64,000 nt of DNA from a virus (lineage: Duplodnaviria; Caudoviricetes): positions 1 to 64,000 of the IMG/VR virus record IMGVR_UViG_3300027782_000065. One strand, written 5' to 3'. A program made the translations under genes and the position numbers. The notes beneath the pieces were generated by a model. That model saw only the letters and a program-made list of their open reading frames with translations. It made no database searches and was not told the origin of the DNA. Shown piece after piece: positions 8,319-61,643 of this stretch. Every line of letters begins with the position of its first letter. Within the stretch, counting starts at the first letter, position 1.

Positions 8319-8334
8319 CTCTTAGTCTTTCTAG

Positions 8335-14300: not shown

Positions 14301-15186
14301 GATCAGTTGCAAATGCACCTACAATCTCCCATTCAGGTCTTTCTTTTGCAAATCCAGCCGGAAGAAGTGGATATTTTTGTGCCGAAGGAATTTGCCTAGT
14401 TGAACTTTCATTAAATGCATTTGAAAGTTTTGCATAGTACATATCAAGGTCACTTAGACCAGTATCAATACCATTATATGATATGTTATTTACACCATCA
14501 GCATATTCAAATACTGTTAATTTGTGGTGAGAGAATGTTGGAATGGATTGATTTCCACTATCAAGTCCAAAATATTGGGGATGTGTATAGACCGTTTCTG
14601 TCTGAAGAGCATCAAAAATTGAAAACTGCCAGAAGAAACAGTTACCAGTAATTCTAAAGATCGCAGACGGATCAATTGCATCGTCTGTTGGATTTGGAAC
14701 GTACTTTGGTCTAATTTTGGTTTTTCTAAGATCCAAACCAATCAGTGAAGTACCTCTAGGTAAGATAACTCCACCATTTACACTATTAAATTTGTAGAGA
14801 ATATTATCTTCCTGAGTTAAATCAAAATTAGATTGTAAAGATAAATTGAATACGTTTGATGCTGGAGAGGTAATTTCTCCGAATGGTGATATTGCTTCTG
14901 CCAGAGCAGGTCCCGTTTTTACAATTCTAAATCCAGGTCTATTGTCAATTATGTGATCGCCAGGATAAACTAGAATTGTAGTTCTATCATTTTTATCATT
15001 GTTTTCACCAGAAACAAATGAAAATCTTGCTGATTCTAATAATGCTCTCTGAATAGTTTTGAAGGGTTTTGTTAAGGAGTTACCCTGATTCGTAATACTG
15101 TCAGTTGCATCAAGATCGTTTGAATTTACATATAGAATTCTACCTTCATAATTCTTGATAAAATTCTCTAACTTATTAAGAGGCAT
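8335..15186 (-). CDS. giant tail-fibre/baseplate-associated protein with C-terminal peptidase S74 chaperone
   Basis: 2283 aa; N-terminus MPLNKLENFIKN.EGRILYV is cyanomyovirus-like; C-terminus SDERLKTNIKPLENALEKV...YEKIVPLLIEAIKEL is S74-type. Confidence 0.85.
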   Translation of the reverse strand: MPLNKLENFIKNYEGRILYVNSNDLDATDSITNQGNSLTKPFKTIQRALLESARFSFVSGENNDKNDRTTILVYPGDHIIDNRPGFRIVKTGPALAEAISPFGEITSPASNVFNLSLQSNFDLTQEDNILYKFNSVNGGVILPRGTSLIGLDLRKTKIRPKYVPNPTDDAIDPSAIFRITGNCFFWQFSIFDALQTETVYTHPQYFGLDSGNQSIPTFSHHKLTVFEYADGVNNISYNGIDTGLSDLDMYYAKLSNAFNESSTRQIPSAQKYPLLPAGFAKERPEWEIVGAFATDPIAVTEIYSGDKFTPSTVVRVTTQIPHNLTVDTPIRIKGAGIAKYNITTVVSTAPTPTTFTYLLPSVDNSTPAEPGGNVEVIIETDTVKGASPYIFNCSMRSVWGMNGMWADGNKASGFRSMVVAQYTAVSLQKDDRAFVKYDPVSRTYRPYPYTKETGTALSSGSASTNSDTVYHLDSGAVYRRGWEPSHIKFTNDAFIQIVSVFAIGFNKHFDAQSGGDGSITNSNSNFGQISLSAEGFKRDAFLKDNYAYITSVIAPKHVQPIEQDVDWISFDVQKTINVGISSHLYLFGFNTADNIPPSLIQGYRVGARQNDVLYLDLPDRTTVSTKIFMTDNVVNSTTPVSEGTNSSYKEFSVITSTSAPNYDTLGLGVNHNIQTGEKIIIISEIGDLPENINPNQTYYAIKDGNNIKIASSFTNAVNGIGIIIYGGTQLKILSRVSDKETGELGSSIQYDPNNSNWFVHVELNNGIYNKIAELGVAGFGEPRTDVGYIKRIADNRSLDEKIFKFRISIPKESPNSKDLTEGFIVQESSRTGPVNSSEFTLPSITRNNFDYQRNPRFISTCSETSGTVTVIAEKPHHLNIGDRIFIRNVKSSTNISGIGLTAYNGDFTVVTTPNSKTFTYSTTDNNRVSHNVGIFSSPVSRDIELPRFERNDLQSNPYIYRTEIIKPYIENVQDGVYHSYILKSDVAVPNHFINYKYNQNVVDLYPQLDRDNLNDNAKTAISYAKVSPLGEVVTNDLKKSITRETLDTLIKKVGLGITISSVTAISAGISTITLGLEHGLNGIVGYGATNFSTGTNGTYYNVRLLNSDNTWNGASATVIVSGGKVSSVSISDGGSGYVNGDVLKLEGFSGSTITVATNAISSSVGNVIQITGDGSVDDGLYRITSVPSKNQIAIARTSGDPTIKTGQYIFNVGPSVVTSSIQNSSSGISTFIFSAGHGLLSGNKFRVVADSASQSNNQGDFVVKDVLGITSFTATTNQTISSPVRILKHGFSSNDLTSDSGFENLGSRGIYFYDNEYAILGENVTTDSSDTTLFAISIPNSGISTLTRFPLGSYIQIDNEILRISSSTLTGDNKISALRGYFGTSKENHNSGSIIKKISLIPIELRRPSILRASGHTFEYLGYGPGNYSTALPQIQVKSLTEREDFLVQSQERSGGSALYTGMNSNGDFFIGNTKYSATSGTQTTFDIPIPTITGQNPSRLSVSFDEVVVKERILVEGGKSKQILSQFDGPVTFNQNIIVNNEQTKINGELISSNIVKLNNQTDSTSATTGSVVSKGGFGIAKSVNIGGNLNITGVTTFNGEVSFNSGLVPDSIEDAYIGSASKPWASSWIGGIGIATEGVPGGTEVQDRTIEGLTGNLVLKSKTGITSVTDNLQVGLDLLVKTNTYLTGIATVQTGLVPDNDVDAYLGTSTKSFSEAYIDGVRIGVGGTTTIDTRGGDLKLDAFTNKVDVLNDLEVSRNTYLVGIATVETGLVPNTDETSYLGTSTKSFSEAYIDEIVIGASDNTVTTRSGDLKLDAFTKKVDVLNDLEVSRNTYLVGIATVETGLVPDADVGAYLGQSNNAFEKAYISGVQIGAAAGAGGTTTIDTRGGDLKLDAFTKKVDVLNDLEVSRNTYVVGVTTVQGNLLPYDTTTGNNATLGSTTQKFSAAYIDEIRIGDTGNGTIDTASGELTLDSTSGTTNINDILKVTGAATFNDNVTIKGSSKTFAIQNNSSTNKFTVSSETGDTIISGILSVTNGITFSSTLSVTGISSFNSDTDATASTSSASIRTLGGAAIAKQLWVGTKVASPEIIPSGVTNTGTVGTNAIKWANMYATTFNGALSGNATSASTINVSDSDGATTYKIALIPDSTGNQNVYKDAGIYFNSSTNDLSVTGDLVAFASDERLKTNIKPLENALEKVLSLSGFTYNFNQIGESLGFNTEITHVGVSAQQIQAVLPEAVCPAPASSEYLTVKYEKIVPLLIEAIKELADKVEKLEQKLSDK

Positions 15187-24407: not shown

Positions 24408-27400
24408 TTAGTTACCTAGTGCAATGATAAGGGGTGTTACTGTATTTAATAAACTTTGACTAAATGCTCTACCAGAAATAGTTCCGGTTAATTGATTAAT
24501 TATAACATCATCTCCGATTTGAAAATTACCAGATTGATTTGTACTAGTATAAATTACTTGTCCACCATTTACCTTATAAACCTCATTATCTTGAATAGAA
24601 ACTCCACCCAAAGCAGGTTTTGCAGTATTAATATTAGTTCCAGATCCAACCCATTCTAATGATATTGATGTTGCAAGTTGCAGACTTAATCTTGAAAAAT
24701 ATGCAGTTGATCCGGCACTAACTGTATTATTTAGATTCTGTGTCAAAACGATTGTAGATATTCCTGCATTTGGTAATGTTGCACTTTCAATTCCATAATA
24801 AATTGGATCCAATACTGGAGATGCTGCAGCATTAGATCCCTCACCACCAGTAATTTGAATATTTGGATTAGTTAAGTATTGTGATCCAGAACTAATAATA
24901 TCAATAGAAGTTACTTTTCCACCCGAAATGTTTGCAGATCCTTCTGCCCTAATTCCACTTGGACCTGTTGGAGCATCAATTGTTACTATAGGAACTGATG
25001 TATAACCAGAACCACCATTAGTTACATCAATTCTCAATATGGAGTAATATAATTTATCAAAATAAACTGCCTGACCATCATAAGGACGATTTGATGCAAT
25101 TCCAGAAATAATTAAAGTATCAGTACCTTGTGATGCAGTCTGTGTTACTATTCCACTATAACGATAGATGGATCTTGAAGATGCATCCCCAATTCCATTG
25201 GAATATAACCCATAATTACCAAAAGATGCATTAGAATTGGTAATATCACATTGCCCACCACCTGCAGTATAAACCGCAATATCATCACAAATTGTAAAGA
25301 GAGAAACCAACTGAGCATATGCACCATTGGTGATGGATGCACCTATTCCACCTTGATTGTATTGAGTATATGAATCCAAACTCATAGATCCAGTTACACC
25401 AATATCATCTTGATCTCCCGGTTCTGCCTCAAATCCATTAACTTTTAAACCAATACTTTTTGGTATAAAATTAGTACAGTTTCTGATGTAAGGTCCTTGT
25501 GTAATTGGTCCAACACCTGGCGAATAAGTATTTCCTCCAATTTTTGTTGCCGACCAATTATTATTTGTTAGTCCATCATATGCTGTAGGATATGTAGTGT
25601 TAATTCCTGCACCACCAAGAGCACCCAATCCATCTCTAATAATTGTCGTAACAACACCAACACAAGAGTAAATTGCCGATACAACATTTGCACAACCACT
25701 TAAACTTTGATTACCATATGCACCATCAGATTGCATACTTAAATCTTTTATTTGTGTATAATTTCTATAATTTCCACCACCTGGTTTTGTGAAAGAAACA
25801 TTATTAATACAAGACCTTGCAATTCCGGCAGCATATGTTAGAGCATCCATTGTCTCAGTTTTTATTCCAACAATATATTGAAGTACTCCTGCATCTGTAT
25901 AATATGTCTTACCTGCTCCAACAGATTTAGAGTTTCCACCTCTTGTGATATCAAAACAAACTGCTTTCAATACTGATTTAATATCTGAGGTTGATACTCC
26001 AATTGAAAATGCTGGATTCCTATAATCAGTACTAGTTAAATATCCTACTGTTTCACTCGCAATAAAATCTAGATTCATACGAATCATTCTTGCACCATCA
26101 AAGAAACGATTTGATGAAACTCCAGATAATGGGCGGAATGCTATAACTGATGCGCCGTTTGTTGAATCTGGTCCAACAAAACTCAAATCTGTTACGTGAC
26201 AACTATTATTAACGTGGAATAAATCTAATCCAGAATTTTGTGGCGTAACAATGCAGTTTCTAAGTTCTGCCCCCTCAACAGAAACACTTTTTTCAAGAAT
26301 TATTGGATTATTTTCAACATATACTCCAGGAAAAACTTTAATTGTGTCTCCAGAACTTGCAATTCCTGCAGCAGATTTAATTGATCTTTTTGGATAATTT
26401 TCTGCTAAACCAGTATAACTATCATTGCCATTTTGTGAAACATAGATTGTTTTTCCAATTGGCGAATATGAATATACTTGAACTCTACCCTTTCCATTTA
26501 CAGGATCTAATGTAACTCCAATACCAGCAACAATCTGAGTGACAATTCCAACAAGAGTTGCACCACTACCATAATAATCAGTTGCTGTTGCAGTTCCAAC
26601 AACTGTTAAAGTATTTGTTATAACAGTTGTTCCAATTCCAATACTTCCAGTTGATGGATTGAAGACTAATTTTTCGGATGAAACAAATATTGTTGATATG
26701 GATCCACTTGATGCTGTTGAAAGACCAATATATCTCAATTCATTTGATTGATCATTTTGTACTTTAAATGATTCACTTATATTGGAACCTTGTGTTCCTT
26801 GAAGTCCTTGAGTACCTTGTCTTCCTTGAGTACCTTGAAGTCCTTGAGTACCTTGTCTTCCTTGAGTACCTTGAAGTCCTTGAGTACCTTGAAGTCCTTG
26901 TGTTCCCTGAGCACCTTGAGTACCTTGAAGTCCTTGAGCACCTTGAAGTCCTTGAGCACCTTGAAGTCCTTGTGTTCCCTGAGCACCTTGAGCACCTTGA
27001 AGTCCTTGAGTACCTTGAGATCCAGAACCTTGCATACCTTGAAGTCCTTGAGCACCTTGTAGTCCTTGAGCACCTTGTAGTCCTTGAGCACCTTGTAGTC
27101 CTTGAGTACCTTGAGATGCAGAACCTTGCATCCCCTGAAGTCCTTGAGAACCCTGAAGTCCTTGAGTACCTTGAGCATTCTGAGAACCTTGAAGTCCTTG
27201 AGTTCCCTGCAATCCTTGAGAACCTTGAAGTCCTTGAGTTCCCTGCAATCCTTGAGAACCTTGAATACCTTGAGAACCTTGAGTACCTTGAGAACCTTGA
27301 GAACCTTGTAATCCTTGAGAACCTTGAGATCCAGAACCTTGCATCCCCTGAAGTCCTTGAGAACCTTGAAGACCCTGAATACCTTGTAATCCTTGAGTAC

Positions 27401-29078
27401 CTTGCAGTCCTTGAGAACCTTGTAGTCCTTGTATTCCTTGAAGTCCTTGTATTCCTTGAAGTCCTTGTATTCCTTGAAGTCCTTGAGCACCTTGAAGACC
27501 TTGATTGCCTTGAAGACCTTGATTGCCTTGAAGACCTTGATTTCCTTGAGATCCAGAACCTTGAATACCTTGAAGTCCTTGAAGTCCTTGATTACCTTGA
27601 TTACCTTGATTACCTTGAGCACCTTGAGTACCTTGAGCACCTTGAGTACCTTGAGCACCTTGAGAACCTTGAAGTCCTTGATTACCTTGAGTACCTTGAG
27701 TACCTTGAGCACCTTGAGCACCTTGAAGACCCTGAGTGCCTTGAAGACCCTGAGTACCTTGAATTCCTTGAGTACCTTGAATTCCTTGAGTACCTTGAGC
27801 ATTCTGAACACCTTGAGCACCCTGGGTGCCTTGAAGTCCTTGCCTCCCTTGAGTACCTTGAGCATTCTGAACACCTTGAGCACCCTGGGTGCCTTGAAGT
27901 CCTTGTGTTCCCTGAGCACCTTGAGCATTCTGAACACCTTGAGCACCCTGGGTGCCTTGAAGTCCTTGTGTTCCCTGAGCACCTTGACAACCTTGAAGTC
28001 CTTGAGTTCCCTGCAATCCTTGATTACCTTGAAGTCCTTGAGTTCCCTGTAATCCTTGATTACCTTGAAGTCCTTGAGTTCCCTGTAATCCTTGAGTTCC
28101 CTGCAATCCTTGAGAACCTTGAATGCCTTGAGAACCTTGAATGCCTTGAGCACCTTGAAGTCCTTGAGTTCCTTGAAGTCCTTGCAATCCTTGAGTACCT
28201 TGTAATCCTTGATTACCTTGATTACCTTGATTACCTTGAAGTCCTTGAAGACCTTGAGTGCCTTGAGTACCTTGGTTATTACTTAAAGCACCTTGAAGTC
28301 CTTGAAGTCCTTGAGTACCTTGAAGACCCTGAGTGCCTTGAAGACCCTGAGTACCTTGAATTCCTTGAGCACCTTGCAATCCTTGAGTACCTTGAGCATT
28401 CTGAACACCTTGAGCACCCTGGGTGCCTTGAAGTCCTTGAAGTCCTTGATTACCTTGATTACCTTGATTACCTTGATTACCTTGATTACCTTGAGCACCT
28501 TGCAATCCTTGAGTACCTTGAGCATTCTGAACACCTTGAGCACCCTGGGTGCCTTGAAGTCCTTGAGCACCTTGCAATCCTTGAGTACCTTGGTTATTGC
28601 TTAAAGCACCTTGAAGACCTTGTCTTCCTTGAAGTCCTTGCCTTCCTTGAAGACCTTGAAGACCTTGAGTACCTTGAAAATCGCTTAGTGCTCCCTGAAC
28701 ACCCTGACCTGCAAATTGTCCAGCAATTCCCTGATTACTTCTTCCCTGAACACCCTGAGCTCCCTGATCTCCTCCGCCAGCGCCACCACCACCTCCAGAA
28801 GCATAGGCAAGAGCACTCCAAGCAGTTGATCCATCACCAAATTTAAACTTACGAGTATCAGATTCAATACCCATTTCACCTGCAAGAAGTACAGGATCTT
28901 CATCAATCCATTCTGCTTCAGTTGCATATTTAAGTATAATATGTTGAGCAGTTAAAACACCATTAACAACACTAAGTCCTTGAACACCACCAGTTCCAGT
29001 GACAGATAGACTATCAACCTCTAAAAAAGAAACATCTTCTGGAGGTCTGTCGGTGTAATAGACTTTAATTCTAGTCAT
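24408..29078 (-). CDS. fibre protein: Mtd_N-like domain, collagen-like GxQ tract and pectin-lyase-like domain
   Basis: EWIDEDPVLLAGEMGIESDTRKFKFGDGSTAWSAL; roughly 700 aa of GxQ repeat; IYVSQNGND...SIKSAA...GDTIKVFPGVY. Confidence 0.8.
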   Translation of the reverse strand: MTRIKVYYTDRPPEDVSFLEVDSLSVTGTGGVQGLSVVNGVLTAQHIILKYATEAEWIDEDPVLLAGEMGIESDTRKFKFGDGSTAWSALAYASGGGGGAGGGDQGAQGVQGRSNQGIAGQFAGQGVQGALSDFQGTQGLQGLQGRQGLQGRQGLQGALSNNQGTQGLQGAQGLQGTQGAQGVQNAQGTQGLQGAQGNQGNQGNQGNQGNQGLQGLQGTQGAQGVQNAQGTQGLQGAQGIQGTQGLQGTQGLQGTQGLQGLQGALSNNQGTQGTQGLQGLQGNQGNQGNQGLQGTQGLQGLQGTQGLQGAQGIQGSQGIQGSQGLQGTQGLQGTQGLQGNQGLQGTQGLQGNQGLQGTQGLQGCQGAQGTQGLQGTQGAQGVQNAQGAQGTQGLQGTQGAQGVQNAQGTQGRQGLQGTQGAQGVQNAQGTQGIQGTQGIQGTQGLQGTQGLQGAQGAQGTQGTQGNQGLQGSQGAQGTQGAQGTQGAQGNQGNQGNQGLQGLQGIQGSGSQGNQGLQGNQGLQGNQGLQGAQGLQGIQGLQGIQGLQGIQGLQGSQGLQGTQGLQGIQGLQGSQGLQGMQGSGSQGSQGLQGSQGSQGTQGSQGIQGSQGLQGTQGLQGSQGLQGTQGLQGSQNAQGTQGLQGSQGLQGMQGSASQGTQGLQGAQGLQGAQGLQGAQGLQGMQGSGSQGTQGLQGAQGAQGTQGLQGAQGLQGAQGLQGTQGAQGTQGLQGTQGLQGTQGRQGTQGLQGTQGRQGTQGLQGTQGSNISESFKVQNDQSNELRYIGLSTASSGSISTIFVSSEKLVFNPSTGSIGIGTTVITNTLTVVGTATATDYYGSGATLVGIVTQIVAGIGVTLDPVNGKGRVQVYSYSPIGKTIYVSQNGNDSYTGLAENYPKRSIKSAAGIASSGDTIKVFPGVYVENNPIILEKSVSVEGAELRNCIVTPQNSGLDLFHVNNSCHVTDLSFVGPDSTNGASVIAFRPLSGVSSNRFFDGARMIRMNLDFIASETVGYLTSTDYRNPAFSIGVSTSDIKSVLKAVCFDITRGGNSKSVGAGKTYYTDAGVLQYIVGIKTETMDALTYAAGIARSCINNVSFTKPGGGNYRNYTQIKDLSMQSDGAYGNQSLSGCANVVSAIYSCVGVVTTIIRDGLGALGGAGINTTYPTAYDGLTNNNWSATKIGGNTYSPGVGPITQGPYIRNCTNFIPKSIGLKVNGFEAEPGDQDDIGVTGSMSLDSYTQYNQGGIGASITNGAYAQLVSLFTICDDIAVYTAGGGQCDITNSNASFGNYGLYSNGIGDASSRSIYRYSGIVTQTASQGTDTLIISGIASNRPYDGQAVYFDKLYYSILRIDVTNGGSGYTSVPIVTIDAPTGPSGIRAEGSANISGGKVTSIDIISSGSQYLTNPNIQITGGEGSNAAASPVLDPIYYGIESATLPNAGISTIVLTQNLNNTVSAGSTAYFSRLSLQLATSISLEWVGSGTNINTAKPALGGVSIQDNEVYKVNGGQVIYTSTNQSGNFQIGDDVIINQLTGTISGRAFSQSLLNTVTPLIIALGN

Positions 29079-49662: not shown

Positions 49663-49689
49663 AAAAAAAGGAGGGAATCAATCCCTCCA
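49663..49689 (-). terminator. intrinsic terminator after the 30-aa ORF
   Basis: GGAGGGA-TTGAT-TCCCTCC followed by a T-run. Confidence 0.75.
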
Positions 49690-49694
49690 GATAA

Positions 49695-49787
49695 TCAGCG
49701 CATTGCCATTGCAAGTTTTGCTTGGTGTTTGCGTTGTTCCTTTTCCTTTTGTTGTTTAATTAAAATAAGTTGCCAATTGTTTTTCAT
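49695..49787 (-). CDS. 30-aa basic peptide downstream of the glutamine riboswitch
   Basis: AAAGGAG Shine-Dalgarno, then MKNNWQLILIKQQKEKEQRKHQAKLAMAMR*. Confidence 0.7.
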   Translation of the reverse strand: MKNNWQLILIKQQKEKEQRKHQAKLAMAMR

Positions 49788-49817
49788 AAGAGGTGCTCCT
49801 TTACTTTGTGGGTATTG

Positions 49818-49868
49818 GTGCGTTGCTTCCCTTATTGGTACTTCCACTGGTTTCCCAGTCAACGTTTG
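49818..49868 (-). promoter_or_regulatory. glnA-motif (glutamine-I) riboswitch
   Basis: CGTTG-ACTGG-GAAA-CCAGT-GGAAGTA-CC-AATAA-GG-GAAGCAACGC; the conserved core CGUUG..GGAAGUA..GAAGCAACGC matches the cyanobacterial glnA RNA as recalled. Confidence 0.85.
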
Positions 49869-49870
49869 GA

Positions 49871-49878
49871 TATTTATA
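49871..49878 (-). promoter_or_regulatory. T4 late promoter TATAAATA
   Basis: Exact consensus immediately 5' of the riboswitch. Confidence 0.75.
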
Positions 49879-50363: not shown

Positions 50364-50984
50364 TCAGGTCCTATTACCCCATTTAATGTCTGGATAAGCA
50401 TCCGAAACAATTTGCTTGGTAATCTTATATTTTGTTTCTAGTTTTTTATCTTTAACCAGAATAAGAATCTCTGCCTCAAGTGGATGCAGTCCCTCAAGAA
50501 CATTAATGAACATTGTTTCTCTACGAAGAGAACTTAGTCCATCATTACCTCCACGAATAAAATTATAAAACCGTGTATATTCTTTGCGAATTGTAGATCT
50601 ACCTTGATCATTCATACCAAGTGAATTAGATCCCATTTCAGACATTTTACTGACTGCATCATTAATTTTACCACTAACAGTCCCACCAAAAGAATTTTGC
50701 TCCCCAACACTTGCATAAGGAACATCCCCTTCAGGAAGCATAGAGATTAAACTTTCATCAAAATTCCAAATAAACAGAGCCTTCAGAGAAGGATCTCCAT
50801 ATTTTTTAAGAACTTCAACTTTTTTTGCATTTGTACGCTGTTTTGATGCAAGATTCAAAACTTCATATGCAAATGGATTTTGTGGAAGTTCTATGATTGC
50901 TGTAGGTTCTTTTACAACAATTTCTTTAGTCTTCGTCTTCGGCGTCGTCGTAGTCATAATTTTCGTTTTCAAATCTAAAAGCAA
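50364..50984 (-). CDS. conserved T4-like hypothetical protein
   Basis: LK.LFIWNFD...LPEG.VPY...LRRETMFI..LEGLHP.EAE.L..VKDK.L; probable start at the internal MTTT. Confidence 0.8.
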   Translation of the reverse strand: MLLDLKTKIMTTTTPKTKTKEIVVKEPTAIIELPQNPFAYEVLNLASKQRTNAKKVEVLKKYGDPSLKALFIWNFDESLISMLPEGDVPYASVGEQNSFGGTVSGKINDAVSKMSEMGSNSLGMNDQGRSTIRKEYTRFYNFIRGGNDGLSSLRRETMFINVLEGLHPLEAEILILVKDKKLETKYKITKQIVSDAYPDIKWGNRT

Positions 50985-51616: not shown

Positions 51617-51643
51617 GAAAAAAGAGGAGATTTCTCTCCTCTT
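51617..51643 (-). terminator. intrinsic terminator
   Basis: AAGAGGAGA-GAAA-TCTCCTCTT followed by a T-run. Confidence 0.8.
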
Positions 51644-51723: not shown

Positions 51724-51752
51724 ATTATAAAGGATTTAGTTTCAAATGTCAA
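51724..51752 (-). promoter_or_regulatory. consensus sigma70 promoter
   Basis: TTGACA-17 nt-TATAAT. Confidence 0.85.
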
Positions 51753-52593
51753 TCCCCATATTTCTAAAAATATCCAATACTTCATCATAAAAACATGAAT
51801 GACCTTTATATTCATCAATACTAAAGTGCTTGCTCGGCCATTCAAAATCTATGACATCTTTTGGAAAAGATAAAAATGCTTTGGTAATTGTTTGAATGGA
51901 TACATCTTGAGAATGATACCAATAGATGGCACCATCATACAAAGACTTATCAGGTGTTAAAATCAAATTATTAATCTCATCATTAAATTTAGCACAGTAG
52001 TGAGCACCAATATAAGTTTCTGTTCTTATAAAATGATTATAATATTTGTGCAGATGTTGTTTAGTAACTTTGATTTGATCTATCAATCCATATTTTTCTA
52101 AGGGAATATCAAAAAGGTCAATTAGGTCTTCAGTATAACCCCAGAAAATATGGTCCCTAGGGGAAAAAAGCAAATTGAGAAAAATACCGGCAACGAATAT
52201 TCTACCTTTGGGTTTATTCTGATCATATTGATATGAAGAAACTTTATCCTTATTCATCATAAAAAAATCAAACATTTTCATCATACTATCGTATGTGTAT
52301 TTTTGATCAGATCTCATCTTCACAGAATACATTGTATTTGATTTTTTTAATCCTTGAAGTGATGAATAAATTTGAAGATTTCTATTATCAGTTCCTGGAG
52401 ATTCTGGGTACTCATTTATTACAAATTGGACTCTATCGGAAAAATATTTTGGATAGACTGGACCTTTATTATCTTCCCAACAGGAAACAATAATATCATT
52501 TACACAAGGTATATTCAGATAAGACTCAATAATCTGATCCGAATACTCATCATATTTTCCTTGAAGGATTATATTTACTTTATCTTCAATCAT
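51742..52593 (-). CDS. WavE-like lipopolysaccharide synthesis protein
   Basis: IILQG...IIVSCW...NRNLQIYSS..GL...KMRSDQ...PRDHIFWG. Confidence 0.7.
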   Translation of the reverse strand: MIEDKVNIILQGKYDEYSDQIIESYLNIPCVNDIIVSCWEDNKGPVYPKYFSDRVQFVINEYPESPGTDNRNLQIYSSLQGLKKSNTMYSVKMRSDQKYTYDSMMKMFDFFMMNKDKVSSYQYDQNKPKGRIFVAGIFLNLLFSPRDHIFWGYTEDLIDLFDIPLEKYGLIDQIKVTKQHLHKYYNHFIRTETYIGAHYCAKFNDEINNLILTPDKSLYDGAIYWYHSQDVSIQTITKAFLSFPKDVIDFEWPSKHFSIDEYKGHSCFYDEVLDIFRNMGIDI

Positions 52594-52608: not shown

Positions 52609-55554
52609 TCATAAAACTGGTGTAACTGGTTCTCCAATCTTTTCAAGATTTTCGTAAATTGCTTTAAGATGTTTTGAATCTATTTCTTTATATTCTGAAA
52701 GAATTTCTTTCAATAAACTTTTTGTCTCTTCGGATTTTCCCCACTGCCATCCTGATATAGCCTTTTCAAAAAGTAATCCATATTTTCCAGGATATTCAAC
52801 ATTAGTTTTTAGCGGAGGGCAATCAAAATTACAATATCTCAATGCAAGATCAGCATTCATATAACAATCTTGCCACCACTCTCGTTTTTCTGCAAATCGA
52901 CTTAACAGAAAATATGCTTCTGGACGCTGTGGTAAAAATGCCTGTGCTTGCCAAAGTAATGACCTAGCACTACCATCTCTAGTTCCCTGCTTCTCATAGC
53001 AATATGATCCACGAATTAATGCTTCATAAGCAAGATCTTCATCCTCTGCTCGTTCTGCACATCTCAGAAAATATGTCAGTGCTGGTGCAGTATGTCCTTG
53101 ATTCTCATACCAAACACCTAGTGCAAAATTATTTTCTGCATTTTCAGTATCTAAAGAATAAGTAGTAATTAATTCTTCAATTTCAGATTTAACAATAGGA
53201 TTTAAATTGATTTCTTTTTCACTTCTATCTTTATTTTTCCACCATTCTAACACAAGATCTCTTGCAACTTTATGATTTGTTTTTTGCCCACCATTCACAT
53301 CATCATCATTATTTTCAAATGTAGAAACAAACTCAGTATTCTCAACAAATAATGGAATTGTATAAGTTTTTCCAAGAGAAGTAAAAATAATATTTTCAAT
53401 TAGTGGCATTACATCATAATTTACAACCTCTAAATGATAGGTGTCTCCTTTGATATAATTATCAATGATTTTTTTGGCATAATCTCTAGTCAAAATATAT
53501 GCAGTTGCTGCCCAATCGTCCCAATATCTTTCACGAATCTCAAAAGTGTCAAAATTACTTCTAATAGTCAATAACTGAACACAATCAGCATCTTCTGGAA
53601 GAGAATCAATGAATTCATCCCAAGTAAAATCCCAATAATCCACAGTTTCTAAACTTAAATCATCTTCACAGAAGAATCCATAATCTTCTTGAGTATTTTC
53701 ATACCAATCTTTAATTGCCTTTAAATGAGAAACGCAGCAACCTTTTGTACCATCATTTAAAGTATGTAAGTGCTTTCCAGTTACGATATCATTAGATTCC
53801 GAAAATCTTTTTGATATGATTGATTTTGGAGAAATATTATATTTTTCAAATTGATCTTCAATACTTTTCTGCCTATCAACACATTCTTCTAAACTCATGT
53901 AATACACAGATACAAGTCCATCTAATTTATTTTTCATATTAATTTCTTCTGCAAAATAATTTTGATCGTCCATTTGAACAATATTCCAATTAGTTTTGGG
54001 TTTTACATAATAATCGGAAATTTTACCGATCATATTTTTATTTTCCTCAATATGTTTTTGAGATAATGCATATTCAACTTGCCACTCCAATTCCCGACCA
54101 CTATAATTAGGACTTAAATTTTCACGAATCATATTCTTATAATTTTCATCCCAACCAAATCCTTCAAAATTTTCAGTTCTTTTGCCATCTGGATGTGGCA
54201 AATGAATTAAATAATTATCATAATCAAGTTTATTCTCATTTAATCCCATATATCTAAGACGTTGAAATATTTCATCATCCTCATAAGAATAACACTTACC
54301 AAGATTTTCATTATAACCACCAATCTTATTGTAATTTTCTTTTGAAATAAACAAGAGACCTGTTAGATATAAGAAGTATGGACTATAAGAATTAAAATAT
54401 TCTTTTAACTGCTCATCACTCATTTCATGCTTATTAATCATATAAAGACCAGTCTCAGGATCCAAATACTCTGGACTATTGGTATTATAAGATCCAGAAG
54501 TAAATGAATTATGATCTGGAAAATATTTTTCTACAAAATTATAATAAGGATTGATCAAATAATCAGTATCTAGTTTAAGAATATAATCACCAGTTGCAAG
54601 GCTTGCGGCAAGATTTAAAGGTTGTGGTTGATTGAAATATTTTTTATCTTCAACTCTTACTATCTTAATTCTTGAATCTAATTTTGTAAGATGATTTAAA
54701 GGTTCATCCGAACTCCAATCAACAATAATTATCTCCTGGATATTCTTAATTGACAACCAAGAATTTAATGATACTCTAAGAGAATCGTATCTATTTTTAC
54801 ATGCACAAATTACTGAAATACTCATATTTGGTGAATTGGAAACATCAAGATTTTCAGAGTGAGGGATAATTTTAATATTTGAATCTTCTTTATGAAATGA
54901 AAGTGTGGCAATAAACAAATTTACTCCATTTTGATAAATTGGAGAATAATCAATATGCTCATATTCTTTTTGATACTCACTTGTCAGTTTTAATCCAGAA
55001 GACTCTACAATTTTAATTAAATTTTCTGGAGAAATAAATTCTCCAGGATCTGGAATAAGAGTAACATCGGTAGAAGAAATTAATCTACCGTTAGGTTTTA
55101 AAACTCTATAAACTTCATCCGCAATATTTTTCCATCCCCAATTTTCAATTCCGTGTCCCCATACAGGTTCAAAACAATGTACGGAGCAACTGTCAATCAC
55201 AACATCTACACTTGCATCCTCCATTTGTTTCAGTTCATATAAGGCATCACCAAGAATCATTTTACTTAATCCTTTAGGACACCAATGATCAACAGAATTT
55301 AAATCTATTCCAGTAACATCATTTCCCCAACTAGCAATAATATGAGGAACACAACCATCTGCAGATCCCAATTCAATTACTTTTAAATTATTTTTACCAA
55401 TTGACTTGAATTCCTCTAATATTGTGACCCATTTCACCATCGCAGCATCTATGTTCCAAAATTTATGGTGAAATCCAATCTCATCCCATTTTTCTTGTTC
55501 AAGTATATTTCTACATTTAGAAATATCTTTATCAGTAAGTACTCTATTATACAT
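52609..55554 (-). CDS. multidomain glycan enzyme: SAM methyltransferase, GT2, GT25-like and TPR-like domains
   Basis: VIELGSADG; ISVICACKNR..IVDWSS..LKLDTD..GYNE..YEDD; YYMSLE..DRQ..GCCVSHL..FFCEDD; ALTYFLRCAE. Confidence 0.85.
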   Translation of the reverse strand: MYNRVLTDKDISKCRNILEQEKWDEIGFHHKFWNIDAAMVKWVTILEEFKSIGKNNLKVIELGSADGCVPHIIASWGNDVTGIDLNSVDHWCPKGLSKMILGDALYELKQMEDASVDVVIDSCSVHCFEPVWGHGIENWGWKNIADEVYRVLKPNGRLISSTDVTLIPDPGEFISPENLIKIVESSGLKLTSEYQKEYEHIDYSPIYQNGVNLFIATLSFHKEDSNIKIIPHSENLDVSNSPNMSISVICACKNRYDSLRVSLNSWLSIKNIQEIIIVDWSSDEPLNHLTKLDSRIKIVRVEDKKYFNQPQPLNLAASLATGDYILKLDTDYLINPYYNFVEKYFPDHNSFTSGSYNTNSPEYLDPETGLYMINKHEMSDEQLKEYFNSYSPYFLYLTGLLFISKENYNKIGGYNENLGKCYSYEDDEIFQRLRYMGLNENKLDYDNYLIHLPHPDGKRTENFEGFGWDENYKNMIRENLSPNYSGRELEWQVEYALSQKHIEENKNMIGKISDYYVKPKTNWNIVQMDDQNYFAEEINMKNKLDGLVSVYYMSLEECVDRQKSIEDQFEKYNISPKSIISKRFSESNDIVTGKHLHTLNDGTKGCCVSHLKAIKDWYENTQEDYGFFCEDDLSLETVDYWDFTWDEFIDSLPEDADCVQLLTIRSNFDTFEIRERYWDDWAATAYILTRDYAKKIIDNYIKGDTYHLEVVNYDVMPLIENIIFTSLGKTYTIPLFVENTEFVSTFENNDDDVNGGQKTNHKVARDLVLEWWKNKDRSEKEINLNPIVKSEIEELITTYSLDTENAENNFALGVWYENQGHTAPALTYFLRCAERAEDEDLAYEALIRGSYCYEKQGTRDGSARSLLWQAQAFLPQRPEAYFLLSRFAEKREWWQDCYMNADLALRYCNFDCPPLKTNVEYPGKYGLLFEKAISGWQWGKSEETKSLLKEILSEYKEIDSKHLKAIYENLEKIGEPVTPVL

Positions 55555-55563
55555 ATGATTTAT

Positions 55564-56034
55564 TCAAACAATTTTTTTATAAAACAAAGGTTTATCGGTA
55601 CAAATACCATAACTGTTTTTTATATATTCAATTCCGTGAGGAAAACTGTACAATGAAATACTTTCAGGCAAAACAATTACAGATTTTGAATATGGATATT
55701 GACCAACCAACACCCAACCAATGCCTTTACTTGTTAAGGTATAACGATCAGTTTCGTGCCAAAAATAATTAAATGCGGTTTTAGAAAATTCAGAAAGTGC
55801 TTCTAAATTTTTACAATGAACCCATAAATTTTCCCTATATTGACTTAACCAATACAAACTGACAACATATTGTGGTTCATCATGCCCCAAATAAAAACAC
55901 TTATCTTTATTATCATAACGCACATCAATCTCCACATCAAATCCTTGGGATAATGCTTCTTCAATATATTCTGGACTATTTTCCCTCAGTGGATTAGGTC
56001 CATTGAGATTTCCACGATGAGAAATAATTTTCAT
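55564..56034 (-). CDS. glycerophosphodiester phosphodiesterase-like protein
   Basis: ISHRGN...ENS...GFDVEIDV...LGHD; start reassigned to MKII, 2 nt after the RLP stop. Confidence 0.75.
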   Translation of the reverse strand: MKIISHRGNLNGPNPLRENSPEYIEEALSQGFDVEIDVRYDNKDKCFYLGHDEPQYVVSLYWLSQYRENLWVHCKNLEALSEFSKTAFNYFWHETDRYTLTSKGIGWVLVGQYPYSKSVIVLPESISLYSFPHGIEYIKNSYGICTDKPLFYKKIV

Positions 56035-56035
56035 A

Positions 56036-57274
56036 TCAAAACTCCAAAATCCATTCGGGGAGAGATCCACCACCAGTTTCATATCCCCATTTATCTATGG
56101 CGGCACGAAACTCTGGTCCAGGGGTTTTATCAATTGCCTGTCTCATTGCCAGAGCACCTGCCAGAGTGCCCTCAGGATGCCCGTGAATGGCACCTCCACA
56201 GTTGGCAAGGAAATCTGTACCAAACTTCTCTGCTGTGGTATTAACGATGCCTGGATGCATCCCACAACTCAATGCTGGAAGTACATTGCGATTATGAAGT
56301 GTTGCAAGAGTTTGACGAAGTTCATTCTCATCATCACTCAGATAACCACCCCACATTCCAGCATGAATCGTATCAACACCCATCAATCCGGCAAGATCAC
56401 AAATCACATCCCAGTCTATTCCAAATGCGTGGCGTTTATCGGTAAGAATTTTGTCGCCACTCTTTTGAAAGTGTTGAAACATCGGTAGATCAAGTCTACG
56501 AATAGAGTTATAAACACCCAAACCACTCCAAAAATTAATATGGATACCGTTTCCACCATTATTAGAAACGAACTTAGCCCTTTCAAGAATCGTGTGGTGA
56601 TCCCCATTAATACAGAACGCATAGATTACATTCCTCCCACAGTTATTCACAATATTTGAAATCAGTTCTACACGATCTTCAAGACGGCAGAACGATGGAT
56701 TTGCCAGAATCTCATCTTCCTTAATGAAATCTACACCACCATCAAGAAGTTCTTTCACCATCTCAGAAAGAGTTTGTGGCGAAATACCAGTCTTTGGTTT
56801 TACAATAGCACCAGAAAGTGGTTTGTCATAACGATTTACAAACTTACGGATTCCATCAATACCATACTTGGGTCCAAGAAACTGTGCTTCCACATCAGCA
56901 GGGAATTCAAGTTTCTGAAGACGACAAGATTTGAATACATCAATATCTAATTGACCTCCCATTACCTGACAAAGAAGATGAGAAATACCATCACCTTCCC
57001 AATCTGTATTTACTTTAGGAAAACCAATTTTTACTACACCTTCTGTGAGTTGTGAGAGTTCATTTTCATCTGCGTAGATAACACAAGATGATAGTTCAAA
57101 CAGTTCATCGTTTTCCCAACGATTACGAACTTTTGGATTACCCACACTCTGCCCAATAGCAAGATTCCAAGCAGCATCACGAAGATTGCCAACATTGGAA
57201 TATGATTCAATATAATATGTTGCTACTACACAACGTTCTCTTTCTTGATCTGTTAGTTCTCTAAAAAATTTCAT
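56036..57274 (-). CDS. RuBisCO-like protein (form IV type)
   Basis: GPKYGIDGIR, IVKPKTG, GVDFIKEDE, GVDTIHAG, PALSCG, GGAIHGHPEGTLAGALAMRQA. Confidence 0.9.
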   Translation of the reverse strand: MKFFRELTDQERERCVVATYYIESYSNVGNLRDAAWNLAIGQSVGNPKVRNRWENDELFELSSCVIYADENELSQLTEGVVKIGFPKVNTDWEGDGISHLLCQVMGGQLDIDVFKSCRLQKLEFPADVEAQFLGPKYGIDGIRKFVNRYDKPLSGAIVKPKTGISPQTLSEMVKELLDGGVDFIKEDEILANPSFCRLEDRVELISNIVNNCGRNVIYAFCINGDHHTILERAKFVSNNGGNGIHINFWSGLGVYNSIRRLDLPMFQHFQKSGDKILTDKRHAFGIDWDVICDLAGLMGVDTIHAGMWGGYLSDDENELRQTLATLHNRNVLPALSCGMHPGIVNTTAEKFGTDFLANCGGAIHGHPEGTLAGALAMRQAIDKTPGPEFRAAIDKWGYETGGGSLPEWILEF

Positions 57275-57597
57275 TGATCAACCTCAAACTTATCTCCAGG
57301 AATAGATGGAACTTTAACTACAACCACAACACAGTCTTCTAAAAATACAGGATTTGCAACTTCACCTTTTTCAAAAACAAACACATCTCCAGAGTTAAGT
57401 TCTTTACTCTGAATAGTCATTTTACCCTGCACAAGAACATTATATTCTACACTTTCTTTATGATAATGGGGTGCCCAATATTCACCTTTTTGGTGAGTAA
57501 GAACACCGACTTCAAAATCTTTAGTTCTCAAAAGTGATGGTTCAAAGTCTCCAATAAACCATCCACGATGATAATCCTTCAATTGAGTTACATTCAT
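57271..57597 (-). CDS. cupin-fold protein
   Basis: RGWFIGDF, PHYHK..EYNVLVQGKM...GDVFVFEKGE. Confidence 0.8.
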   Translation of the reverse strand: MNVTQLKDYHRGWFIGDFEPSLLRTKDFEVGVLTHQKGEYWAPHYHKESVEYNVLVQGKMTIQSKELNSGDVFVFEKGEVANPVFLEDCVVVVVKVPSIPGDKFEVDQ

Positions 57598-58307
57598 ACT
57601 TTACGAATAAAATTTTCAAGATCTTCAGGTACTCCAACAGGATTATGTTGCCAGGATGGAATATGATGAATGCCAACTTTTAATCCAGCACCAATCATAT
57701 GATTATATGTTGGTCCGACATAAAATTCACCATTCGGTGCCCTATCATTACATTCTATCATATTTTCCGTACTTTGTACAAAGTATTTCCCCTTTCTCCA
57801 ATAATGAATCCCATTCAATGATATATCACTTATGACTTGCTTTTCTTTAATTTCTTGCACAAATCCATTTTTATCAAGTCTAGCATAACTATTTTTTGGA
57901 GTGTCTGTACTATAAGTAACAACTAACCCATCATACTTATAATACCTAGCAGTTGTAAGAAACAGATCTGCATCCCACCACATAATTTGATCACAATTTG
58001 CAATCACCAATTCCTCTTCACTATTAATAAAATCTTTAAATAAAAGACAACTTGAGGCAGGACCTTCTGTAGTTTCTTCTACGCTAATAATTTTTGCCGA
58101 TGGGAGAAGTGAATGTAAAAGAGTACAGACCTGATCATAGTAACTATCTTTTCTAATTACAAAGTGATAAGTTCCCACTAATCCTAACGATTGTATTGCT
58201 CGTTGAATCATAGGAATTCCATCAATTTCTATTAATGGTTTTGGAATTTTATAGGTATCTCTGGGAAATCTAGTCCCTTCACCTGCCATTGGAATTAAAA
58301 TATTCAT
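57594..58307 (-). CDS. sugar nucleotidyltransferase-like protein (BcbE-like)
   Basis: ILIPMAGEGTRF...PKPLIEIDG.PMI...IANCDQ...EIKEK..IS...GIHYW...NGEFYVGP.YN. Confidence 0.85.
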   Translation of the reverse strand: MNILIPMAGEGTRFPRDTYKIPKPLIEIDGIPMIQRAIQSLGLVGTYHFVIRKDSYYDQVCTLLHSLLPSAKIISVEETTEGPASSCLLFKDFINSEEELVIANCDQIMWWDADLFLTTARYYKYDGLVVTYSTDTPKNSYARLDKNGFVQEIKEKQVISDISLNGIHYWRKGKYFVQSTENMIECNDRAPNGEFYVGPTYNHMIGAGLKVGIHHIPSWQHNPVGVPEDLENFIRKV

Positions 58308-59119
58308 TCCTTAAAAGAGTATGTTAATTGATATACTAGATTATGGAAATCATCAGAGATGAATGGAGTTTCACATTCTCCAGTCAAATAATAATTATAA
58401 TACCTTTTTATGGATTCTTCCAAAGGATCACTACCTATAATAATTTCAGTACCTTCAAAATTAATAGTATTAAAGGTATTAGATTCTATTATTTTTTCAT
58501 CTACAATAAATCTAGTATAAGTTTTATTTGAAAATCCAAACTCAAAAGTAATATTTTTATTATCCAAAATAAATTTTGATTTATAAATGGTAGTGCTTAC
58601 TTTTTCAACAGAATGTAACGTAACATCATCCAATTCAAGTGATTTTAAAATACAAATCATGTGAGGTAAAAAATCTTCCAATATGGTCAATTTTCTATCA
58701 ACATAATTAGCAGAAAAAAATTGAATATCTAAATTTAGAAAATTATTAGGTATAATTTCTTTAATTTTTTTTATTTTTGATGAATTATACCAAAGGTAAT
58801 TTACATAAGGATTATTTTTATACGAATTTTTTTTATTTTTAATATTAAAAGGTTTTTCAACAAAAACTTTTTTATTAAAAAGTGATATTATTTCATGATG
58901 ATATAAAGGTCCAGTAAGAATAAAAGTTGGTAAATTTTTATCAACCTCTTCTATAAGATTTCTTGTAAGTATATTTTTACAATTTACAAAAACATCTTTC
59001 TTATCGGTAACTAAATTTTGAATTTGATATCCACTTGATTCTAATTTTTTTGCAACTCTAGATCCCCAATTCCCATACCCAATGATGTTAATTGGAATAT
59101 CACAATTAAAACTATCCAT
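58304..59119 (-). CDS. Gfo/Idh/MocA-like oxidoreductase
   Basis: IIGYGNWG Rossmann motif, VFVEKPF, D..PH. Confidence 0.7.
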   Translation of the reverse strand: MDSFNCDIPINIIGYGNWGSRVAKKLESSGYQIQNLVTDKKDVFVNCKNILTRNLIEEVDKNLPTFILTGPLYHHEIISLFNKKVFVEKPFNIKNKKNSYKNNPYVNYLWYNSSKIKKIKEIIPNNFLNLDIQFFSANYVDRKLTILEDFLPHMICILKSLELDDVTLHSVEKVSTTIYKSKFILDNKNITFEFGFSNKTYTRFIVDEKIIESNTFNTINFEGTEIIIGSDPLEESIKRYYNYYLTGECETPFISDDFHNLVYQLTYSFKE

Positions 59120-59957: not shown

Positions 59958-60666
59958 AATCTAGAATTACTTCGATTGTTTTTGTATTCATATAATTCTT
60001 GAGAATTTTTGCATTTGGAATAACACAATGACCTCCAATTTTTTTAGTTGGATAAAGAACTGGTCTAACCACATTTTCTTTTCCTAATTTTATATAACCT
60101 TCATTATACGATTGATTATAAAGAGTCATAACTTCTTCAAAATCAATCTCTTCATTTTTACAAAGATTTGCAACATCAGAATGAAAAGCAATGCACATCC
60201 CATAATAAGTTGTATCTAACAGTTTAGCATATTCAGTTGTCTTACTATCTTTGCAAATATGACTTCTAATTCCAATACTATCTAAATGCTTTTTATATAG
60301 TATGGCGGAATTATCATCTTCTGGTCCAATATATTTCAAAAAAGTTTTCATACCCAAATCAAGATTAGGATGCAATCCCCTCATAGGTGAGTGACAAACT
60401 TTACCACCAATAAGTTTAGTTGTTCCAGGAGAAACAGTGGAGTGAATGATTGTATAGTTTGGATTTGCTTTTGCAACATATTCTTTAACAATATCCACAA
60501 AGTTATCGATGGATGGAATACAAATATTAAGTATTTCAACTCCATTAATATCATCATCAAAATTTTGAAATGGATCTACTACTCTAATATCAAATCCACC
60601 AAAAGATCTATACACTTTTGCAATGCTGCTACCAATTTCTCCATGTCCAATGATTCCGATTTTCAT
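59950..60666 (-). CDS. UDP-glucose/GDP-mannose dehydrogenase family protein (short form)
   Basis: GIIGHGEIG, ICIP, HSTVSPGTT, EYAKL, GGHCVIPN; start reassigned to MKIG (TGATG overlap). Confidence 0.8.
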   Translation of the reverse strand: MKIGIIGHGEIGSSIAKVYRSFGGFDIRVVDPFQNFDDDINGVEILNICIPSIDNFVDIVKEYVAKANPNYTIIHSTVSPGTTKLIGGKVCHSPMRGLHPNLDLGMKTFLKYIGPEDDNSAILYKKHLDSIGIRSHICKDSKTTEYAKLLDTTYYGMCIAFHSDVANLCKNEEIDFEEVMTLYNQSYNEGYIKLGKENVVRPVLYPTKKIGGHCVIPNAKILKNYMNTKTIEVILDYE

Positions 60667-61643
60667 CAAACACAAACTCCATTAATATAGTATTCTACCA
60701 CTTCTTGAATAACTTCGTCAACCCCTTTAGTCGGACTCCACCCAAGCCTTTCTTTAATTTTTTCACTATCGGGAATTTTTTCCGGTGCTTCTGCAAAAAG
60801 TGGTCCATGAAGATCTATTGGATCAACATGAAGAATTTTTGATTTAGTTTGAGTCATTTCTTTAACTTTTTCTGCAAGGTAAAGAATTGTTCTTTCATTA
60901 TTTTTATTACCAATATTCCACTCCTCATTCCAATCAGAATCATTAGCAGTGGAAGCAAGATAAATTCCATCCACAATATCTTTAACCCAAGTGAATGCTC
61001 TCAACTGCAGACCATCATAATAAACTGTTATGTCTTGATTGTTTAATGCCTGATTAACAAATCTAGGAAGAACAAATCCACCATTAGGAAGTTGATATTT
61101 ACCAGTGACATTAAATGGTCTGATAATCTGATATTTAAAATCAGAGTCAATTTTTGCATGATTCGTTAAAACAATTTCAGATAATAATTTAGCAACTGCA
61201 TATTCATTTCTAACAGTAAAATCACCATGAAGAACTTTATCACTCTCTTCTTTCAAATAACTTTTACCGTCCCTATGTCCATAAATTTCTGAAGTAGAAA
61301 TAAATATTAAAGGACATTGATTATACTTGGCAGTATTAATTGCCCAGTAAATATCATCTAAGATAATTCTTGCCATATTACCAGAGTGTTTTAAAACACC
61401 CACAGGTCCTACAGGAGAAGCAAGATGAAGAACTAAATCAAATTTGGGTAAAGATTTATAATCAACATCTAAAATATTTTTTCCAATAACATCAACATCT
61501 TCAACCAAATGATAATCTGTAGGTATAGCATTTGTAGATAAATTATCTATGACACAAATGTCCCAACCTTCAGATTTCCATTTTTCAATGCAGTGTGCTC
61601 CAATGAATCCTAATCCACCAGTTATTAATATTTTTTTATTCAT
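60666..61643 (-). CDS. NAD-dependent epimerase/decarboxylase (UDP-glucuronate decarboxylase-like SDR)
   Basis: TGGLGFIG, HLAS, STSEIYG, YAVAK, RPFNVTG, RAFTWVKD. Confidence 0.85.
   Translation of the reverse strand: MNKKILITGGLGFIGAHCIEKWKSEGWDICVIDNLSTNAIPTDYHLVEDVDVIGKNILDVDYKSLPKFDLVLHLASPVGPVGVLKHSGNMARIILDDIYWAINTAKYNQCPLIFISTSEIYGHRDGKSYLKEESDKVLHGDFTVRNEYAVAKLLSEIVLTNHAKIDSDFKYQIIRPFNVTGKYQLPNGGFVLPRFVNQALNNQDITVYYDGLQLRAFTWVKDIVDGIYLASTANDSDWNEEWNIGNKNNERTILYLAEKVKEMTQTKSKILHVDPIDLHGPLFAEAPEKIPDSEKIKERLGWSPTKGVDEVIQEVVEYYINGVCV

Follow-up and report, generated by a model that had tools for sequence, protein, structure and literature searches.

What a relative of RuBisCO does in a phage, where it is encoded among genes for glycan synthesis, is the question raised by one gene in the viral DNA analysed here. 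This stretch, which we call the window, comprises positions 1-64,000 of the 81.6-kb record IMGVR_UViG_3300027782_000065, and the gene encodes a RuBisCO-like protein (RLP). RLPs are a classic illustration of how a celebrated enzyme fold can be put to new chemical uses and, to our knowledge, all of their known functions lie in salvage or catabolism. A phage RLP as such is not new: Jaffe et al. 2019 (PMC6389311) described about 80 'form IV-like' RLPs on phage contigs, which group with Beckwithbacteria and to which no function is assigned.

Our analysis revealed that the RLP of the window belongs to a clade in which the conserved unit is the RLP and a nucleotidyltransferase (NT), with a small cupin and a miniature GDPD-type phosphodiesterase (mini-GDPD) often joining them. 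The RLP probably marks one version of a mobile cassette that activates sugars for surface-glycan synthesis. In the window, these genes and a fifth one are arranged as follows:

58304-59119, minus strand: Gfo/Idh/MocA-type NAD(P) oxidoreductase, 271 aa (ESM Atlas features 0.96, structure TM 0.8)
57594-58307, minus strand: stand-alone sugar- or alcohol-phosphate NT, 237 aa (PF00483)
57271-57597, minus strand: small single-domain cupin, 108 aa (structural model and HxH...E motif)
56036-57274, minus strand: RLP, 412 aa, of the 'form IV-like' phage/cellular clade (PF00016)
55564-56034, minus strand: mini-GDPD, 156 aa (profile, structural model and motifs)

The junctions were read directly. A preliminary description of this DNA, made from the sequence alone, had linked the oxidoreductase, NT, cupin and RLP genes by ATGA overlaps, and these are indeed found at 58307/58304, 57597/57594 and 57274/57271. 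The phosphodiesterase-like gene does follow the RLP stop directly, but the gap, given as 2 nt, is a single base, a trivial difference: the stop codon TGA occupies 56038-56036 and the ATG of the mini-GDPD lies at 56034. The open reading frame (ORF) of the latter spans 55564-56082, the real start at 56034 giving 156 aa.

Active site and clade of the RLP

The RLP is a member of the RuBisCO superfamily, matching PF00016 with an E-value of 1e-43 and 150.2 bits against a cut-off of 30.1, and is the intact 412-aa large-subunit homologue that had been described. Its N-terminal domain (PF02788) scores just under the cut-off, at 19.5 against 20.7 bits. The best solved relative is the form III RuBisCO 2cwx (E=7e-41).

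With regard to the active site, residues were mapped in an alignment that set 127 sequences of the clade against 22 bona fide RuBisCOs (form II/III and III-like), which came from the same genome scan. The RLP keeps the equivalents of K175, K177, K201, D203, E204, H327, S379, G381, G403 and G404; in the numbering of the window protein, the first two are K159 and K161, the Mg/carbamate site is K185, D187 and E188, and the P1 phosphate loops are likewise kept. The conserved part of the site is thus as first described, including K175/K177, the metal/carbamate site, H327 and the phosphate loops. Four other catalytic residues are replaced, E60 by G41, N123 by G107, H294 by Q270 and K334 by Y311, and further replacements affect T65 (N), R295 (K), H298 (D) and G380 (C). 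For N123, H294 and K334 this agrees with the earlier reading, but E60 had been read as a glutamine: its equivalent is G41, and Q42 is the next residue.

Throughout the clade, E60 is always replaced by G, T65 by N, N123 by G, H294 by Q, K334 by Y and G380 by C, while R295 is nearly always K, H298 is mostly D and H327 is mostly kept. This signature is invariant over the 127 sequences, down to 36% identity; in the 22 bona fide RuBisCOs, the canonical E, N, H and K are retained. Such an invariant, divergent signature indicates that the clade is under selection for a different reaction built on the RuBisCO enolisation core. As E60, N123, H294 and K334 are replaced, the RLP cannot be a carboxylase, which agrees with the preliminary description, and a CO2-fixing RuBisCO was rejected on the invariance of these replacements in the clade.

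The NCBIfam equivalog profiles were also compared. The scores reached were 196 bits for rubisco_III (cut-off 497), 109 for form II (489), 131 and 173 for the MtnW profiles TIGR03332 (513.6) and NF007095 (409), and 155 for OiaX (700), all below their cut-offs. By these profile scores the RLP stands apart from the methionine-salvage RLPs, a grouping that would have counted against the preliminary description.

The clade is widespread. About 2,700 relatives of the RLP are present in the protein database. Among viral sequences, relatives are encoded on at least 227 IMG/VR contigs, one of which measures 518 kb and the others up to 197 kb. A scan with one genome per species identified cellular carriers in Pelagibacteraceae (including a closed genome), Legionella nautarum, L. 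drozanskii, L. maceachernii, Francisellaceae, Turneriella, Azospirillum, Verrucomicrobia, Beckwithbacteria and other bacteria of the candidate phyla radiation (CPR), and DPANN archaea. The closest cellular homologues are those of SAR11, at 65-67% identity. A tblastn search of the RLP against 50,697 deposited phage records gave no match, so there is no cultured phage model for the RLP version of the cassette.

In a FastTree phylogeny rooted only on CPR/DPANN form II/III and III-like sequences, the clade is monophyletic with respect to these sequences (100*) and its deep branches are cellular. The window RLP falls in an all-viral subclade, and a Beckwithbacteria sequence with 51% identity (L094) lies inside the same clade. 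For the position of the clade with respect to YkrW, DeepYkr, Photo and NonPhoto, profile scores alone were used. The clade shares with the RLPs of Jaffe et al. 2019 (PMC6389311), as described in the portion of that article used here, an occurrence on IMG/VR myovirus-type contigs and in phages of about 200 kb, the grouping with Beckwithbacteria, and key residues unlike those of known form IV proteins. We assign the window RLP to their 'form IV-like' clade on phage carriage and the Beckwithbacteria grouping, the two sets having been compared by the published description. That portion of the article contains no linkage to an NT, cupin or GDPD, no fusions, no alternation with HAD, RpiB or RibB domains, and no SAR11 or Legionella members.

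Gene linkage and interchangeable partners

Linkage was examined with hidden Markov models of the four proteins over all loci retrieved, of which 98 from the clade had at least 2.5 kb of flank on both sides and were counted. In 96 of these, the RLP has an NT no more than 3 kb away, compared with none of 15 loci of other RuBisCO forms; a cupin is present in 65 of the 98 and a mini-GDPD in 69. Gene order is shuffled across loci while the linkage is retained: with N, C, R and G standing for NT, cupin, RLP and mini-GDPD, the orders include NCRG (43 loci), GNR (12), NCR (10), RN (7), GNRN (5), RCN (3) and others. Two distinct metagenomic proteins of 813 and 817 aa (P0121 and P0122) are RLP-NT-cupin fusions. 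The preliminary description had named a conserved neighbourhood as the key test of a tie between the RLP, the NT and glycan genes, and both the neighbourhood and these fusions bear it out. We found no paper that joins an RLP, a nucleotidyltransferase, a cupin and polysaccharide.

In contrast, the five genes, described at first as an operon, are not the unit that is conserved. No counterpart of the oxidoreductase stands beside the RLP in the other 82 loci compared (80 of them viral), so this gene is particular to the present phage, and the five genes sit within a longer co-directional run of 12 ORFs inside the window.

Other frequent neighbours are WavE-family proteins (29 loci), nucleoside diphosphate (NDP)-sugar epimerase/dehydratases (34 loci), FkbM methyltransferases, GT11 and DUF7796-like proteins. 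The cellular surroundings are mostly glycan loci as well. In Pelagibacter the context consists of heptose genes of the lipopolysaccharide (LPS) core, in a SAR11 single-cell genome of GT17/GT61, and in Turneriella of GT2. LicD (PF04991) adjoins the RLP-NT pair in four Legionellaceae loci; PSI-BLAST and BLAST searches with the Legionella LicD found it in Legionellaceae loci only, and it is thus not a general partner. On a 59-kb contig (L165) with giant-virus-like content, namely ankyrin repeats, DUF5899 and matches to hypothetical proteins of Nucleocytoviricota, the RLP is fused to a domain with weak glycosyltransferase leads (8001-10175) and adjoins an NT-cupin fusion (6581-7936). The cassette therefore seems to reach eukaryotic giant viruses.

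Two short contigs assigned to cellular metagenome-assembled genomes (MAGs), L084 (Methanobacteriota, 4.6 kb) and L085 (Crocinitomicaceae, 3.3 kb), each hold a complete NT-cupin-RLP-GDPD cassette; their RLPs share 84% and 69% identity, respectively, with that of the window. The L084 RLP nests within the viral subclade, and both contigs look like phage fragments mis-binned into cellular MAGs.

The partner proteins could each be placed in a superfamily. The NT matches PF00483 with 33.3 bits (cut-off 21.2) and has conserved residues G9, G11 and R13 of the G-x-G-x-R motif; its profile matches PDB entry 4evw over the full length (1.9e-32) and is closer to sugar-1-phosphate NTs such as GDP-mannose pyrophosphorylase and RmlA than to IspD, LicC or inositol-phosphate cytidylyltransferases. 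The Pfam matches of the cupin are below cut-off, but its model, built from an alignment of relatives (pLDDT 94.8), has the cupin fold, with Foldseek matches to cupin phosphomannose isomerases, KdgF and sugar-phosphate-isomerase cupins at probability 1.0, and the metal-motif residues H44, H46 and E51 are invariant. By this model it is probably a metal-dependent sugar or sugar-phosphate isomerase or epimerase.

The phosphodiesterase-like gene had been recognised as such from the start, and profile, model and catalytic motifs all identify a GDPD. The profile of the 156-aa protein matches the GDPD 7e0v over its first 50 residues (E=1.5e-4), and the top Foldseek matches of its model (pLDDT 94.6, from an alignment of relatives) are all GDPDs, at probability 1.0 and TMq 0.5-0.57. 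It contains the motifs HRG, EN, ExD and GHD, with H6, R7, E35, D37 and H51 invariant. At 156 aa it falls about 90 residues short of a normal GDPD and represents a divergent, miniature form.

Among viruses the mini-GDPD is more widespread than the RLP, with at least 589 contigs encoding it. All 56 viral loci centred on it with good flanks have an NT. This NT is free in all 12 of the loci with RLP and cupin, and fused to another domain in 41 of the 44 without RLP. Domain searches over all 80 mini-GDPD loci identified 46 HAD_2-NT and 10 NT-RpiB fusions, and in the flank-filtered set the fused NTs of the NT-RpiB size class are accompanied by the same cupin. A cupin shared by the RpiB and RLP versions is what would be expected if the two enzymes did equivalent jobs.

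Cultured cyanomyophages carry the same kind of module in their glycan islands, with an NT of the same subfamily (30-42% identity) and, in all but S-SKS1, a mini-GDPD (153-209 bits); these modules differ in having no RLP and an NT fused to HAD_2, RpiB or RibB. S-CAM9 (gp067), DSL-LC03 and B23 combine a HAD-NT with the mini-GDPD. SynMITS9220M01 has an NT-RpiB (PF02502, 4e-33), the shared cupin, the mini-GDPD, a GHMP kinase and a HAD phosphatase; its NT-RpiB gene (L168:3992-5149) is annotated 'phosphatase' in the record, and of its cupin ORF (L168:5146-5466), which scores 124 bits with the cupin profile, the annotation covers just 5326-5466. In Synechococcus phage S-SKS1, SWZG_00042 (L164:6001-7428) is an NT fused to a RibB-type 3,4-dihydroxy-2-butanone-4-phosphate (DHBP) synthase (PF00926, 5e-65), which as a sequence implies a nucleotide-activated four-carbon keto-phosphate or related product; the record annotates it solely as DHBP synthase.

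A DUF7796-like protein is encoded in the same island past the window end, at 66904-67659 of the record (L162:2904-3659). It is 54% identical to those adjoining the cassette on 41 viral contigs, and weaker relatives are neighbours of the module in S-CAM9, DSL-LC03 and SynMITS9220M01. It may be a further constant member of the cassette, possibly the transferase. The constant pair in phages is the NT and the mini-GDPD, often with a DUF7796-like protein, and the RLP is one of several interchangeable partners.

The surrounding island and the phage

The five genes are followed and preceded by further genes of the same direction:

52609-55554, minus strand: fusion of methyltransferase, GT2 and GT25, 981 aa, a candidate user of the activated unit
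51742-52593, minus strand: WavE-family LPS-synthesis protein, 283 aa
59112-63641, minus strand: upstream co-directional island genes
51622-51643, minus strand: first convincing terminator-like hairpin downstream of the island, with a 9-bp stem and then a T run

The upstream segment holds a 281-aa protein of no known family, a truncated NDP-sugar-dehydrogenase-like protein (241 aa), an NDP-sugar epimerase/dehydratase (325 aa, 60666-61643), a 194-aa protein and an FkbM-type methyltransferase (416 aa). Pfam and NCBIfam searches with the mini-GDPD and with the 281-aa and 194-aa proteins gave no match. Shuffled sequence contains promoter-like sites at least as often as the real one. A perfect TTGACA-17-TATAAT promoter-like site (51724-51752, minus strand), situated just past the downstream end of the island, lies about 100 nt from the hairpin, and the two fit the 'orphan transcription unit' of the preliminary description. 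A DUF6433 protein (2e-37) is encoded at 50364-50984, likewise just downstream, and has homologues near the cassette in 18 other loci. A glutamine riboswitch had also been proposed at 49663-49878; at gathering thresholds, Rfam gave no family there or elsewhere in 40000-64000.

The 81.6-kb record is 38% complete by CheckV. Baseplate, tail and tape-measure-like genes lie at 30-39 kb of the window, and past the window end the record encodes the virion structural protein phrog_5838 (1043 bits), tail fibres and further glycan genes, so phage genes stand on either side of the island. The phrog_5838 protein is 45-47% identical to its counterparts in T4-like Synechococcus myophages; we infer a Synechococcus-type host from this identity only, and take the phage to be a T4-like marine one. 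The photosynthesis gene psbA was not found in the 81.6-kb record. A ferrochelatase-like auxiliary gene (71896-72708 of the record, L162:7896-8708; phrog_2954, 1e-56) sits between tail-fibre-like genes. Two very long ORFs on the same strand as the tail module, at 8335-15186 (2283 aa) and 24408-29078 (1556 aa), probably encode giant virion or fibre proteins.

Proposed role and its alternatives

Beyond the gene linkage and the residue pattern, the steps of the following scheme are those that we infer. The RLP would use its carbamylated-lysine/Mg2+ site to enolise a ketose phosphate and would isomerise rather than carboxylate it, the substrate most likely coming from the ribulose-5-phosphate/pentose-phosphate pool. 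The cupin would perform a second isomerisation or an epimerisation, and the NT would attach a nucleotide to the product. The mini-GDPD could then act on a phosphodiester bond of this activated unit, by forming, transferring, cyclising or trimming it, and neighbouring transferases (the GT2/GT25 fusion, the WavE-like and the DUF7796-like protein) would place the unit on a glycan. In this phage, the additional Gfo/Idh/MocA oxidoreductase may reduce or oxidise an intermediate, and the island would serve to remodel the surface of the infected cell or to glycosylate virion parts.

The choice of substrate follows from the partners that take the place of the RLP. The products put forward in the preliminary description, a branched sugar, a ketose or a polyol, are conjectural, and the gene context hints, weakly, at the pentose-phosphate pool. 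RpiB and RibB both act on ribulose-5-phosphate via enediol intermediates, a chemistry akin to that of the RuBisCO core. Given that these are the fusion partners of the NT elsewhere, the RLP is suggested to be an enediolate isomerase supplying a unit derived from pentose phosphates. In this more specific form, the RLP clade would carry out an anabolic isomerisation or rearrangement, new to the fold, of a ketose phosphate from the pentose-phosphate pool, the product being nucleotide-activated and built into surface glycans, and the RLP would be a non-homologous replacement for HAD, RpiB or RibB. We advance this tentatively, as a proposal whose chances we put somewhat short of even.

Several points weigh against these proposals. 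The RLP clade is known from sequences and gene context alone. The pentose-phosphate argument leans on the fusion partners of NT homologues that are 30-42% identical to the NT of the window, and separate versions of the cassette may yield different products. The RLP version comes without a kinase or mutase, which leaves the origin of a phosphate suitable for the NT unaccounted for. The NT itself reaches no NCBIfam equivalog cut-off that would indicate its nucleotide and sugar specificity, and its nearest solved relative, 4evw, is uncharacterised. GDPDs are hydrolases, and the mini-GDPD may have a trimming or catabolic role. Finally, no obvious glycan genes surround the RLP-NT-cupin trio in one Verrucomicrobiae chromosome, and the Legionellaceae loci have neither cupin nor mini-GDPD.

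Two alternatives keep the cassette biosynthetic but change the position of the RLP or the fate of the product. The cassette could make a head group, a phospho-alcohol or phospho-ketose linked to cytidine diphosphate (CDP) or another NDP, which would be transferred as a phosphodiester in the manner of LicC/LicD or TarI/TarJ, with the mini-GDPD or LicD acting as phosphotransferase, instead of a glycosyl donor. The LicD genes of the Legionellaceae, found where the mini-GDPD is missing, would fit such a role, as would the mini-GDPD, which keeps all residues for phosphodiester chemistry, and the coupled oxidoreductase of this phage. The NT-RibB and NT-RpiB fusions also recall the NT-reductase fusion of CDP-ribitol synthase, and the CDP-ribitol (TarI/TarJ, Bcs1) and LicC/LicD pathways likewise pair an NT of the same fold class with a ribulose-5-phosphate enzyme. 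They differ from the RLP cassette in that no reductase is conserved across the clade and the NT profile favours sugar-1-phosphate NTs over IspD, LicC and the inositol-phosphate cytidylyltransferases; moreover, no GDPD is known as a biosynthetic transferase. We consider a head group unlikely. The RLP could also act after activation, the NT making a common NDP-sugar that a dehydratase or oxidoreductase converts to an NDP-keto-sugar, to be enolised, isomerised or epimerised by the RLP and cupin. Among NDP-keto-sugar 3,4-ketoisomerases and 3,5-epimerases, small cupins are the norm, an NDP-sugar epimerase/dehydratase occurs near the cassette in the 34 loci mentioned and in the present island, and in this phage a Gfo/Idh/MocA enzyme is coupled to the NT. 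Nevertheless, the characterised members of the RuBisCO superfamily all have a closed pocket for small substrates, sugar or keto-acid phosphates, and the RLP has conserved P1 phosphate loops. The domains that replace the RLP elsewhere (HAD_2, RpiB, RibB) act on free sugar phosphates, and the minimal loci, RLP-NT in Legionella and RLP-NT-cupin in Verrucomicrobiae, have no dehydratase. On this evidence, an action on the NDP-sugar appears rather improbable.

Two further possibilities would remove the RLP from glycan synthesis altogether. It resembles MtnW/YkrW, the 2,3-diketo-5-methylthiopentyl-1-phosphate (DK-MTP-1-P) enolase, in fold, in the carbamate/Mg site and in enolisation without carboxylation, and methionine salvage likewise involves both a phosphoesterase (MtnX) and a member of the cupins (MtnD). 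OiaX (3-oxo-isoapionate-4-phosphate decarboxylase) and the RLPs of the apiose pathway act on branched or keto sugar-acid phosphates (Carter et al. 2018, as cited in PMC6389311). An enzyme of such a known salvage or catabolic type (DK-MTP-1-P enolase, 5-methylthioribulose-1-phosphate isomerase, or apiose/hamamelose decarboxylase), placed in the island incidentally, would explain the moderate profile similarity to MtnW and OiaX (173 and 155 bits). The equivalog cut-offs, at 409-700 bits, are nonetheless far higher than these scores, mtn genes are absent from the surroundings of the clade members examined, and no methionine-salvage or apiose-pathway gene adjoins the RLP in any neighbour-annotated locus. 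The apiose RLPs are encoded in catabolic operons and not beside an NT, whereas the present RLP is linked to an NT and glycan genes and has the active-site signature of its own clade. A methionine-salvage or apiose role was accordingly rejected, and a salvage or catabolic function of any of these types seems very remote. Least credible of all is a true CO2-fixing RuBisCO, or host DNA mis-assembled onto a phage. The closest solved relatives by score are form III RuBisCOs and the closest cellular homologues are those of SAR11, but the residues for carboxylation are invariantly replaced. The possibility of a mis-assembled host contig, raised in the preliminary description, was rejected in view of the virion genes on both sides of the island, of dozens of independent viral contigs, the longest 197 kb, that repeat the arrangement, and of the position of the window RLP in an all-viral subclade.

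The reading of the RLP as part of a sugar-activation cassette also changes what can be done about the phage RLPs, whose function has been 'unclear' since 2019: the linkage turns the question into a defined experiment, with a set of two to four proteins and a short list of substrates, and the Legionella species provide cultivable carriers in which the glycan product can be sought. If the proposal is true, this would be the first biosynthetic role for an RLP and the first function for the widespread phage RLPs, and would constitute a new route to an activated sugar. It would also point to a possibly undescribed nucleotide-sugar or phospho-sugar decoration in SAR11, in Legionella and in marine phage-host systems. 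Abundant marine phages would then carry interchangeable modules that remodel cell-surface glycans, with a bearing on phage-host recognition in the ocean.

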